This document shows positions 12,001 through 15,000 of a stretch of DNA of 64,000 nucleotides, one piece after another. The stretch spans positions 19,592,001-19,656,000 of the forward strand of contig NW_026262734.1 of NCBI RefSeq assembly GCF_021869535.1, in the 5' to 3' direction. Source of the stretch: Mytilus californianus (taxonomy: Eukaryota). Within the stretch, counting starts at the first letter, position 1. The number at the start of each line of letters is the position of its first letter. A program made the position numbers.

Positions 12001-15000
12001 TTTTCGACAGTTCAAAAAAGCGTTTCCGTCTGAGGACATAGCAACACTTTTATTGAGGAAGAATGAATATTGCTATGATTACGTGGACTGCGAAGAGAGA
12101 TTTCAAGAAAGGCAATTACCATCAAAAGAAGCCTTTCACAATCGCCTAACGGATGAACCCATTTCGGATCAGGATTATAATCACGCTCTTGAAGTTTGGA
12201 ATACCATGAAAATGAATAATTTGGGTGACTTTCACGATCTATATGTAATGACGGATGTTCTACTTTTAGCAGACGTCTTTGAACGATTTAGAGACATAAC
12301 TATGGAAAATTATGGTTTAGATCCCTGTCATTTCTTTACAGCCCCTGGTCTCGCATGGCAAGCTGCGTTGAAAATGAGTGGAGTTTCGCTAGAATTGATT
12401 ACAGACCCTCTTATTTACAATCTTGTGGAACTTGGAACGAGAGGTGGAATAGCCTCTATTAACCAAAAGTATGCTAAAGCCAACAATAAATATGTGAAAG
12501 ATTTCGATCCTTCAAAACCATCATCACACATATTATATACGGACTGTGGAAACCTTTATGGGGCTGCTATGATGCAACCATTACCAACGGGTCTGTTTAG
12601 ACTGTTGAAGGATGATGAAATACAGCAAGTTAATATAAATGAGATTGAAAAGGATGCATCTACGGGATACATCTTAGAGGTGGATCTGGAATATCCCCCC
12701 GAACTACATGATCATCATAATTGTTATCCACTAGCTCCATCTCACAAGAAAGTTGAAATGGAAGAGCTGTCTTCTTACAGTCAAAATCTTTGGAAAGACC
12801 TAAATGGTGAAAATGCATCTAAAGTCGTCACCAAAAAACTTATCCCTACATTGGAAAATAAAGACCATTACATTCTACATTATAGAAATTTACAGCTATA
12901 TCTTGAACTTGGAATGAAGGTAACCAATATACATCAGATTGTAGAGTTTCATCAGTCAAGATGGTTGAAGACCTATATTGACTTCAATAGTCAAAAAAGA
13001 AAGGAGGCCAATAATGTGTTTGAGAAAGAATTCTACAAGTTAATGAATAACAGTGTTTTTGGTAAGTTTGTTGTTTTTTTTTTTTGCGTTGTAATGTCTT
13101 TTACTTTTTTTTATTTTCTAATAAGAAACGAAAAAAATCGAACATTGAATTCATAAAAGCAATTTAAAAAAAAATGAAAATATTAATCGATCTTTTACTT
13201 GTAGGAAAGACCATGGAAGATATTCGCAGACATAGAAACGTAAAACTTATGTCAGACCAGAAGAAATTGGTAAAATATACGTCGAAACCGTCCTTTGACC
13301 ATTTTCAGATATTTAACCAACACCTTGTGGGTATAGAAAACAAAAAAGTGAACATTCTTTTAAACAAACCAATCTATGTTGGTCAGGCAATATTGGACAT
13401 TTCGAAAGCACTGATGTATGAATTCCACTACAAAATAATGAAGCCCATGTATGGAGAAGATATTCGATTGCTTTTTACGGATACTGGTAAATATTTTATT
13501 TTTTTTTATATTTTATGGGGATAAAAGACAAGTAGTACATAAGTTATCAATTTTACCGCTTCGACCATGCATGTTTCAGTTAAATAAATTCAGTCGGCAA
13601 CAGAATTATTCGGCTAGTCAAAGCTAAACAATGATGTAATTCTTATTTTCTTACAGACAGCTTGTGTTACGAAATCATGACAGATGATGTATACAAGGAT
13701 ATGGAAATCATCAAAGACCATTTCGACTTTTCTGGATATCCTCAAACTCACTACCTATTTTCAAACAAATACAAAAAAATGCCTGGAAAATTCAAAGATG
13801 AACTAGATGGTAACTAATTTTATTATTAATCGATTAACAAAAACTTAAAAATAACAAATATTGAATATAAAAAAAACAAAGTCCAAAGAAAAAAAATAAT
13901 ACCATTGAGATTTTTTTTATTTTACAAAAATCTATTTCTTTTTAACCTAATTTTAAACCTAATTTTTAACTAAATACTTGATGAATTTCGTTTTGTTTCA
14001 GGCGTTCCAATTAAAGAGTTTATTGGATTGCGACCAAAAATGTACAGTTTGATATATGATGACGACAACACGGAACAGGAAAAGAAAACTGCCAAAGGAA
14101 TAAAAAAATGTGCCGTCAAAAAACAGTTAAAACATGCCAATTATAAAGAATGTTTATTTCAAAATGCATCGACAATGAATTCAATGAAATTGATAAAAAG
14201 TCAAAATCATGAACTCTTTGTCAACCATATTGTCAAAAAAGGTTTATCTAATTTTGATGAGAAAAGATTTTGGATTAATCATATTAAGAGTTATGCCTAT
14301 GGACATTTTAAAATATGATTAATCCAAAATCTTTATATCAATTATGTTTTATGTTTTATTTTATAATATACTATGTAATTTGAAATAAAATTTTTTTTAT
14401 TTTTTAAAAACTTTAATGGAATGCCTCAAACAAACTTCATCTTACAGAGAGTACATAGATTTTTTATTGAGTATTTACGTCATTAAATAGACCTAAAAGG
14501 TCTACACTGTTCACCTCTTCTATTCTCCTTTTTTTGGGAGCCGTATATGGTGGAGGTGGTGGAGGCATTTCTGCTGATCCCCTTGAGGATGGTAAATTAT
14601 ATTCTGGCTTATAGGTTGCATAGGTTGCAGACCCAAAAGGTTCTTGATCATAGGTTACAGATCCACTAGCTTCGGGTTGATAATTTGGCCCACTGGTACT
14701 TTTATTCTCCTAAAATATTTTTTTTATTTATTTTTTTTTTTTTGCATTTTTTTTATATATTTTATAAGTTTTATATATTTTTTTCGTTCCTTAAGCGAAA
14801 GTTAGTTCTTCGAAAATGAATATGTGTTTGGTAGAACAAACTTCAAGTCTGATAAGTTATATAATAAGATCAACATACATTATTAAAACCCACCCACCCC
14901 CTTATTTTAGCTTTAAGACAGCATTTACATATTATAAAAACATATTTTCAACTTAATTGACTGTTTTGACACCTGAGCTAATACCACTTTTTTTTGTCTC

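Follow-up and report, generated by a model that had tools for sequence, protein, structure and literature searches.

The question raised by this locus in the Mytilus californianus genome is whether a Polinton/Maverick carries a DNA polymerase gene that is split by spliceosomal introns and, if so, how these introns were acquired and what they would mean for the element. The whole stretch of DNA analysed, 64 kb in length, is referred to here as the window. According to the available sections of three reports, the core genes are intronless in intact vertebrate Polinton elements (PMC8097293), are described as intronless in endogenous viruses of protists (PMC10120064), and introns are present only in the cargo genes of nematode Polintons (bioRxiv 10.1101/2022.07.12.499685). 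The remark in a preliminary description of the locus, that Polinton core genes are usually described as intronless, agrees with these sources.

The element and its uninterrupted genes

The bounds and ends of the element are as follows.

2545..21660, + strand: whole Polinton/Maverick, 19,116 bp (~19.1 kb), termini AG..CT; recognised by terminal inverted repeats (TIRs), identical 6-bp flanks and gene content
2539..2544, no strand: target site duplication (TSD), left copy ATTATT, matching the right flank
21661..21666, no strand: target site duplication, right copy ATTATT, matching the left flank
2545..2858, + strand: left terminal inverted repeat, of which the outer 109 nt are 2545-2653
21513..21660, - strand: right terminal inverted repeat

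Over their outer 109 nt, the two TIRs differ by a single mismatch; the left TIR has about 164 extra bases after this outer block, followed by a second matching block at 2818-2858. A target site duplication of 6 bp is typical of Polinton/Maverick elements. Four ORFs, all open and on the same strand as the polymerase gene, precede it.

4248..5453, + strand: integrase ORF with rve core and chromodomain, uninterrupted (Pfam)
6339..7664, + strand: candidate double jelly-roll major capsid protein, 441-aa ORF, uninterrupted (language-model features; a lead only)
7661..8170, + strand: adenovirus-type cysteine protease ORF, uninterrupted (PF00770, 27.8 bits, cut-off 21.3)
8273..8944, + strand: P-loop ATPase ORF, candidate A32-like packaging ATPase, uninterrupted (Pfam)

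The integrase ORF matches PF00665 with 34.8 bits (cut-off 32.6) and PF00385 with 25.3 bits (cut-off 25.1). In the ATPase ORF, several P-loop families give matches with E values of 2e-4 to 0.1, and PF04665 reaches 20.7 bits, under its cut-off of 22.8. The capsid candidate has no Pfam match; its language-model score is 0.99 against clusters with a PF21738 share of 14-30%, and its single-sequence fold model was unusable (pLDDT 31). For the ORF at 5872-6339, considered as a possible minor capsid protein, the Atlas search score was only 0.78 and uninformative.

The TIRs, the 6-bp TSD, the rve integrase, the adenovirus-type protease, the P-loop ATPase and the capsid-like ORF together uphold the earlier assignment to Polintons. 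The element shares its 19.1 kb size, AG..CT termini, TIRs, 6-bp TSD, rve integrase, adenovirus-type protease, P-loop ATPase, capsid-like ORF and protein-primed PolB with animal Polinton/Maverick elements (polintoviruses); it differs from them in the three introns of its polymerase gene, as their core genes are intronless in the descriptions available. The right-hand 7 kb is repeat-rich and without a long ORF, and given this the copy may be non-autonomous. The element is regarded as a structurally intact, recently inserted Polinton/Maverick, as part of an explanation that, with the three-intron PolB included, we consider highly probable as a whole. Neither an Rfam match in the whole window nor a second polymerase copy in it (tblastn) was found, and a sigma-70/terminator scan upstream of the polymerase gene, which is unsuited to a eukaryotic element, gave nothing useful.

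The polymerase gene and its three introns

9710..14318, + strand: protein-primed family B DNA polymerase gene in 4 exons with 3 introns; 1367 codons when the exons are summed
9710..13061, + strand: exon 1, 3352 nt; zinc fingers, exonuclease part, polymerase part up to motif B
9929..10186, + strand: C2H2 zinc-finger region at the polymerase N-terminus, exon 1 residues 74-159
13062..13204, + strand: intron 1, 143 nt, GT..AG, phase 1, GC 0.20, within motif B
13205..13486, + strand: exon 2, 282 nt
13487..13656, + strand: intron 2, 170 nt, GT..AG, phase 1, GC 0.28, within the second Asp codon of motif C
13657..13809, + strand: exon 3, 153 nt
13810..14001, + strand: intron 3, 192 nt, GT..AG, phase 1, GC 0.17
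14002..14318, + strand: exon 4 including the stop codon, 317 nt
14384..14389, + strand: AATAAA, candidate polyadenylation signal, 66 nt past the polymerase stop

The identity of the gene is supported as a protein-primed family B polymerase, as the preliminary description had called it. On the four exon peptides Pfam detected only zinc fingers, in exon 1, with nothing significant in exons 2-4, and PF03175 was not reached; all eight chosen relatives, however, carry PF03175 (37-65 bits, cut-off 25.8). The fold model of exon 1 (pLDDT 76.6) has phi29 DNA polymerase as its top match (E 7.6e-7, target TM 0.42-0.45). PDB sequence searches with exon 1, with a 31-sequence profile and with a 17-sequence profile built without the zinc-finger N-termini retrieved no polymerase, and the PDB matches listed for the first two are all zinc-finger proteins. 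An adenoviral polymerase was matched in neither the PDB sequence searches nor the fold search.

The N-terminal C2H2 fingers and the gene-like exon-intron structure may suggest a host-domesticated gene, a zinc-finger fusion with introns, among Polinton remains, and domestication has been proposed for bivalve Tc1-like elements that bear introns, in the available part of the report on them (bioRxiv 10.1101/656579). However, the gene is enclosed by TIRs that are nearly identical and by a TSD, and it is arranged in line and on the same strand with the integrase, capsid-like, protease and ATPase ORFs; zf-C2H2 is present in 15 of 31 aligned proteins of the polymerase group, a group with zinc fingers and an Endonuclease VII-like module that is common in molluscs and cnidarians; and thousands of relatives (3902 at E<=0.001) fit a mobile family. 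Domestication therefore appears exceedingly improbable.

The exons contain no internal stops or frameshifts. Counted from the ATG at 9710, exon lengths of 3352, 282, 153 and 317 nt place all three introns in phase 1, and an exonic G precedes each of them; the last base of exon 1 is the first base of a Gly codon. The borders are ttg|GTAAGT...TTGTAG|ga for intron 1, ctg|GTAAAT...CTTACAG|ac for intron 2, and atg|GTAACT...GTTTCAG|gc for intron 3. The exon peptides abut at ..KLMNNSVF / KTMED.., ..LLFTDT / SLCYE.. and ..KDELD / VPIKEF.., and the split codons G|GA, G|AC and G|GC encode Gly, Asp and Gly. The preliminary description had proposed GT-AG introns in phase 1, each after a G, at 13062-13204, 13487-13656 and 13810-14001, and this was borne out to the base. 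GC is 0.29-0.35 in the exons against the lower intron values listed above, every intron has stops (2-8) in every frame, and pyrimidines make up 65-75% of the 20 nt ahead of each AG, compared with 50% of the window. The signals of U2-type introns (GT..AG ends, extended donor, pyrimidine-rich acceptor) are present in all three. A phase common to the three introns is weak evidence on its own (about 1 in 9). Overall, the three segments behave as spliceosomal introns, and splicing is what we infer from the sequence.

Comparison with related polymerases

The splice model was tested exon by exon on the best 120 of the 3902 relatives, and the exons were never joined. In 81 of the 120, the four exon peptides are collinear end to end, with exactly one residue, that of the split codon, between neighbours. 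This residue is Gly in 98 of 98 relatives at junction 1, Asp in 92 of 92 at junction 2, and Gly in 65 of 81 at junction 3. Junction 2 is also contiguous in 97 of the best 150 exon-2 cluster representatives. In the nine columns around each of junctions 1 and 2, the commonest residue has a share of 0.63-1.00 and 0.59-1.00, respectively, and the split-codon column is invariant at both. The columns at junctions 1 and 2 belong to motif B and motif C, respectively. It is therefore supported by the alignments that introns 1 and 2 interrupt the two motifs, as had been proposed earlier, and that they do so in invariant columns. Some of the 81 contiguous relatives may represent spliced gene models or contigs of transcripts, and not genes free of introns.

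The junction positions are set independently by homology, and the joint frequency of GT and AG at fixed positions in the window is 0.0028 per junction, or 2e-8 for three. Chance is excluded as the source of the GT..AG ends. One alternative is that the segments arose by insertion or decay in a dead pseudogene of the polymerase and are never removed from RNA; in studies of vertebrate Mavericks, Genewise 'introns' are indeed regarded as insertions into degraded copies, in the section available (PMC8097293). Against this, the GT..AG ends stand exactly at the points required by homology in all three cases, removal of the segments restores the invariant Gly and Asp codons, the four exons are free of stops and frameshifts, the TIRs differ at only 1 of 109 nt, and the same sites recur in diverged relatives, as described below. 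A pseudogene is therefore highly improbable. The explanation that very probably holds is an intact Polinton/Maverick with three ordinary U2-type GT-AG introns in the last quarter of its PolB gene.

Introns in the relatives were read from the end points of unspliced ORF calls in protein collections. In 5 of the 120 relatives, junctions 1 and 2 are read through, and then a tail of G followed by K, R or M and a stop occurs at junction 3. Among exon-2-sized ORFs, 9 of 21 end in ..DT followed by G and an unrelated tail, and the same end is found in 6 of the 150 exon-2 representatives, one of which is also among the nine. One exon-3-sized ORF, whose cluster comprises 11 members from 6 contigs, begins with an acceptor-like head and ends with a donor-like tail. 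Read-through at junction 1 would give the same residues (G, K) as the native sequence, and the three 'same site' cases there are weak for this reason. In a 99% identical copy elsewhere, exon 2 is kept at 92 of 93 residues, and the tail read from intron 2 diverges soon past the donor. Relatives that seemingly keep the introns are 55-76% identical in exon 2.

A new observation is that, in related elements, unspliced ORF calls end at the sites of the Mytilus introns and bear signatures of donor read-through. Intron 3 seems to be the most widely shared, intron 2 would be common to the closest clade, and for the motif B intron, sister groups seem to have the site 8 nt upstream or 1 nt downstream. 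Since the ORFs of relatives end at these sites, the introns appear to have been inherited within a PolB lineage, which strengthens the earlier proposal that they were gained and kept. The ORF ends suggest that intron 3 was gained first, and that the sub-lineage of the present copy then acquired intron 2 and an intron in motif B.

Introns may also be made by introners or MITE-like insertions. In the available part of a study of dinoflagellate introner-bearing Polinton-like proviruses, about 25% of the viral elements in dinoflagellate genomes contain introners, and about 25% of those lie in coding regions (PMC12166617), and in the Mytilus element the exonic context TG|R is common to all three sites. 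These proviruses likewise have introns in integrated elements, some of them coding; from the text available, however, their introns are repeated transposon families in protists, whereas the Mytilus introns are unique in the 64-kb window and seemingly shared by descent. A blastn comparison of the introns with one another and with the remainder of the 64-kb window gave no likeness beyond A/T runs, and neither terminal repeats nor duplications were seen at the intron ends. Within the window, an introner origin was therefore not supported, and it is very unlikely. A further likeness is with TLEWI, a Tc1-like element of pteriomorph bivalves (bioRxiv 10.1101/656579), which is likewise a mollusc DNA transposon gene with acquired spliceosomal introns; as far as the available text describes it, TLEWI is without TIRs, low-copy and proposed to be domesticated, whereas both ends of the Polinton are intact and its set of genes is full, with the packaging ATPase and the capsid protein as candidates.

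Proposed expression of the polymerase and its implications

The unspliced ORF runs from 9710 to 13156 and therefore ends ahead of the DTD motif (motif C), as had been noted earlier. The probable scheme is as follows. Host RNA polymerase II would transcribe the polymerase gene in the nucleus, and the host spliceosome would be needed for a polymerase with motif C, as translation of an unspliced message would end in a truncated protein. The Polinton would replicate from DNA to DNA, and the introns would thereby be passed on with it.

A parallel is found in adenovirus, a dsDNA virus of the nucleus whose protein-primed family B polymerase (E2B) is made from a spliced, host-made mRNA. In E2B, a short upstream leader is joined to one long coding body, and splicing is not known to cut the catalytic motifs. 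Both polymerases are protein-primed and of family B; the Polinton introns, however, fall within catalytic motifs.

Splicing could also act as a gate, as the preliminary description had suggested: if most cells kept one or more of the introns, and only certain tissues or states allowed their removal, full-length polymerase and hence the copying of the element would be restricted to these. In Drosophila, removal of the third intron of the P element is needed for an active enzyme and is germline-specific, which provides a model for such gating; however, the P element encodes a cut-and-paste transposase and its tissue-specific retention has been shown by experiment, whereas the Polinton introns are predicted from sequence. 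The end of the unspliced ORF ahead of motif C, the position of the introns in the catalytic core, where they are apparently kept across the relatives, and donors 2 and 3 (GTAAAT, GTAACT), which are further from the consensus than donor 1, are consistent with gating. On the other hand, the signals of all three introns are ordinary, constitutive introns would be kept equally well, and the lengths of exons 2 and 3, although multiples of 3 nt, carry no information on regulation. Gating is therefore speculative and clearly unlikely. The introns are taken to be constitutive passengers, neutral or mildly useful, rather than a proven regulatory switch.

It is also conceivable, although unlikely, that an animal Polinton lineage amassed introns stepwise in the catalytic core of its polymerase and kept them since spliceosome-dependent expression benefits the element, with sites near motifs B and C being re-made or shifted in sister groups. 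If so, the element could benefit by evading a host response that silences foreign transcripts without introns, or by a polymerase output limited to certain cells, and intron content would be an adaptive trait of a DNA-only replicator, not a passenger.

The introns may also have consequences for how Polintons are surveyed. In surveys of endogenous Polinton-like elements, as their available sections describe them, prokaryotic gene callers are used or 'intact' is defined by intronless ORFs (PMC10120064, PMC8097293, bioRxiv 10.1101/2025.04.19.649669). Intron-split Polintons would be fragmented or scored as degraded in such surveys, and the truncated ORFs among the relatives in protein collections are such pieces. 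Since the element has no RNA intermediate, and thus no loss of introns by reverse transcription, intron gains would accumulate and could be used as lineage markers, with a suggested order of intron 3, then introns 2 and 1. Finally, introns that need removal before motif C can be made would show that a Polinton replication gene is expressed via nuclear host transcription and splicing, which bears on how and where Polintons are expressed.

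Three introns in a Polinton polymerase gene

The gene for the protein-primed family B polymerase (9710-14318, plus strand) is interrupted by three segments, read in the sequence of 12400-15000, each of which starts with GTAA, ends with YAG behind a pyrimidine-rich run, and is preceded directly by an exonic TG. Since the exons, counted from the ATG at 9710, measure 3352, 282, 153, and 317 nt, all three introns are in phase 1.

Exons and introns of the polymerase gene (plus strand)
9710-13061: exon 1, 3352 nt
13062-13204: intron 1, GC 0.20; border ..KLMNNSVF / KTMED.., split codon GGA
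13205-13486: exon 2, 282 nt
13487-13656: intron 2, GC 0.28; border ..LLFTDT / SLCYE.., split codon GAC
13657-13809: exon 3, 153 nt
13810-14001: intron 3, GC 0.17; border ..KDELD / VPIKEF.., split codon GGC
14002-14318: exon 4, 317 nt

The GC content of the introns compares with 0.29-0.35 in the exons. Each intron carries 2-8 stops per frame with no frame free. The four exons contain neither a stop nor a frameshift, and the window has no N. An AATAAA lies 66 nt past the stop codon. Without splicing, the open reading frame extends only from 9710 to 13156. The intron boundaries and phase-1 positions proposed in the preliminary description are thus confirmed by the sequence and the exon lengths. 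The lengths of exons 2 and 3 are both divisible by 3 nt; therefore, the frame would survive skipping of either one.

The gene belongs to an element whose outer 109 nt form inverted repeats with one mismatch and which is flanked on both sides by ATTATT. The polymerase is preceded, in the same orientation, by a closely packed series of open reading frames, and the right-hand 7 kb contains tandem repeats and no long ORF.

Features of the element
2545-21660: Polinton element, 19,116 bp, termini AG..CT
upstream, same strand: rve integrase with chromodomain, uninterrupted
upstream, same strand: 441-aa ORF, uninterrupted; a tentative lead from language-model features, which score 0.99 against clusters in which some members bear a double jelly-roll annotation
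upstream, same strand: adenovirus-type protease, uninterrupted
upstream, same strand: P-loop ATPase, slightly below the A32 cut-off, uninterrupted
15718-17266: tandem repeat, 363 bp x 4.3, 98% match
20187-20368: tandem repeat, 88 bp x 2.1
20692-21186: tandem repeat, 246 bp x 2.0

The left terminal inverted repeat has about 164 bases (2654-2817) more than the right one, and these partly repeat the adjoining terminal sequence (83% over 42 nt). A candidate accessory gene of two exons at 14464-15345 on the minus strand runs convergently to the polymerase: an ORF that starts with the ATG at 15345 offers GTAAG donors in frame near 15141 and near 15105, and a TTTTAG acceptor ending at 14710 is followed by an open 81-codon exon (14709-14464) with a PPPPPPY run, a stop, and AATAAA directly after. 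Neither of its exons had a match in Pfam.

Outside the element, inverted repeats of 60 nt (85%; 25818-25883 and 28534-28620, about 2.7 kb apart) and a hairpin at 23117-23251 with 52-nt arms and a 31-nt loop may belong to other small transposons. A 682-aa ORF on the minus strand (48452-50500) matched only unrelated Pfam families, with no stretch passing alone, and has the look of repetitive or low-complexity sequence, not of a recognisable gene.

Polymerase identity and colinearity with relatives

The splice model was evaluated exon by exon; every search and fold used single exons, never a joined product, and the length of 1367 residues is a plain addition of the exons. Exon 1 alone fell below the Pfam PF03175 threshold, and sequence searches of the PDB yielded no polymerase. 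PF03175 was reached by all eight chosen relatives (37-65 bits against a cut-off of 25.8), which were picked because this domain was already in their precomputed annotation, and by 4 of the 31 proteins in alignment A1; the relatives of exon 1 that reach it are 38-62% identical. Alignment A1 also served for an AlphaFold model of exon 1 (pLDDT 76.6, pTM 0.55), which had phi29 DNA polymerase as its best fold matches (E 7.6e-7, probability 1.00), with target-normalised TM of 0.42-0.45 across about 610-625 columns, followed by other viral family B polymerases. C2H2 zinc fingers are present at the N-terminus, as in 15 of the 31 aligned proteins, and an Endonuclease VII-like module occurs in 22 of the 31. 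Within the exonuclease part, a stretch rich in Cys and His at about 11600-11800, or roughly residues 640-690 of exon 1, matches the position of that module (PF02945), which exon 1 itself did not reach at E<=0.1.

With residues 330-1117 of exon 1 as the query, 3902 proteins among 7999 candidates scored had E<=0.001, and the four exon peptides were compared separately by BLASTP with the best 120 of them. Bivalves supply most of the named relatives, with gastropods, cnidarians, and a spider also represented, which makes a mollusc the probable host. One relative, P0030 (1027 aa, 48% identical), carries the label of a bacterial metagenome-assembled genome (Sedimenticola) and is probably mis-binned eukaryotic DNA.

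Extent of colinearity in the best 120 of 3902 relatives
81: contiguous across all three junctions, with exactly one residue, that of the split codon, between exon alignments
11: contiguous across junctions 1 and 2, ending at or before junction 3
6: contiguous across junction 1, ending at or before junction 2
22: ending at or before junction 1

Where relatives are contiguous, the split-codon residue is Gly at junction 1 (98/98), Asp at junction 2 (92/92), and Gly at junction 3 (65/81). Junctions 1 and 2 lie in what we take to be motifs B and C, and the surrounding columns of the relatives' alignment are near-invariant. When the library was searched again, independently, with exon 2 as the query, 5522 proteins had E<=0.001, and junction 2 was contiguous with exact spacing in 97 of the best 150. 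Coding sequence replacing any of the three segments was not found in the relatives compared. At positions fixed by homology, GT and AG together have a frequency in this window of 0.0028 per junction; over three junctions this gives about 2e-8. Some of the 81 fully contiguous relatives may be spliced gene models or transcript contigs; therefore, not all of them prove intron-free genes.

Probable intron positions in relatives

Intron positions in relatives were read from the ends of proteins called on unspliced sequence. In such a protein, reading on through a phase-1 GT donor makes the split codon Gly, after which come an unrelated tail and an early stop. The earlier reading that introns split the polymerase is supported, and these ORF ends carry it beyond this copy. 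Five of the best 120, at 46-56% identity in exon 1, continue through junctions 1 and 2 and show the signature at junction 3; these sequences are unspliced and lack introns 1 and 2. At junction 2, 9 of 21 exon-2-sized ORFs end in ..DT, G, and an unrelated tail, as do six of the best 150 exon-2 representatives, one being shared with the nine; in seven ORFs that lack intron 2, the end comes about six codons past motif C and has a phase-2 signature. One ORF, 99% identical in exon 2, has heads and tails that come from introns 1 and 2; of its 93 exon residues 1 is changed, compared with 3 of the 5 residues that follow a shared GKY in the intron 2 tail. Only one exon-3-sized ORF was found (67% identical, 11 members on 6 contigs); its head is acceptor-like and its tail donor-like.

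Near motif B, different sub-groups of the relatives P0001-P0136 have intron-like ORF ends at three sites, all within 9 nt. Three possible cases of the same site at junction 1 are weak, because the read-through equals the native residues. The ends of ten of the closest relatives fit a phase-2 intron 8 nt upstream, where it would split the motif B Ser codon. The starts of five ORFs lying downstream fit that site too, and the same five share intron 2. In three further relatives, the ends agree with a position 1 nt downstream.

The simplest reading of these ends is that the introns were inherited within a polymerase lineage. This would make intron 3 the oldest and would mean that the motif B site either shifted by sliding or arose again through separate gains. 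Within the 64 kb, the introns showed no similarity to each other or to the rest of the window, and therefore an introner origin is without support there; nor was a second copy of the polymerase found in the window. Since the element presumably copies DNA to DNA, its introns would be passed on. A polymerase containing motif C would need nuclear transcription and intron removal by the host spliceosome. The suggestion in the preliminary description that splicing could gate replication to particular tissues or states is speculative.

Polinton introns in the literature

The ORFs of intact vertebrate Mavericks are described as intronless, a result given as 'in agreement with' Kapitonov and Jurka 2006, and the same study handles 'introns' from Genewise as insertions (PMC8097293). 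For nematode Mavericks, core genes are given as intronless and cargo genes as intron-bearing (bioRxiv 10.1101/2022.07.12.499685). Endogenous viruses 'do not contain introns' according to PMC10120064, where prokaryotic gene callers are justified on that ground, and introns are left out of consideration in bioRxiv 10.1101/2025.04.19.649669. Reports exist of introners in dinoflagellate Polinton-like proviruses (PMC12166617) and of spliceosomal introns in Tc1-like elements of pteriomorph bivalves, which may be domesticated (bioRxiv 10.1101/656579). The introns mentioned in bioRxiv 10.1101/2023.08.22.554363, bioRxiv 10.1101/697771, PMC12220804, PMC3671162, and bioRxiv 10.64898/2026.10.13.758929 are self-splicing or group II. 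In the literature searched, no description of spliceosomal introns in an animal Polinton polymerase was found, and supplementary gene models could show such introns. Overall, the finding is of moderate interest for Polinton biology, and it matters in practice to any pipeline that takes Polinton-like elements as intron-free.
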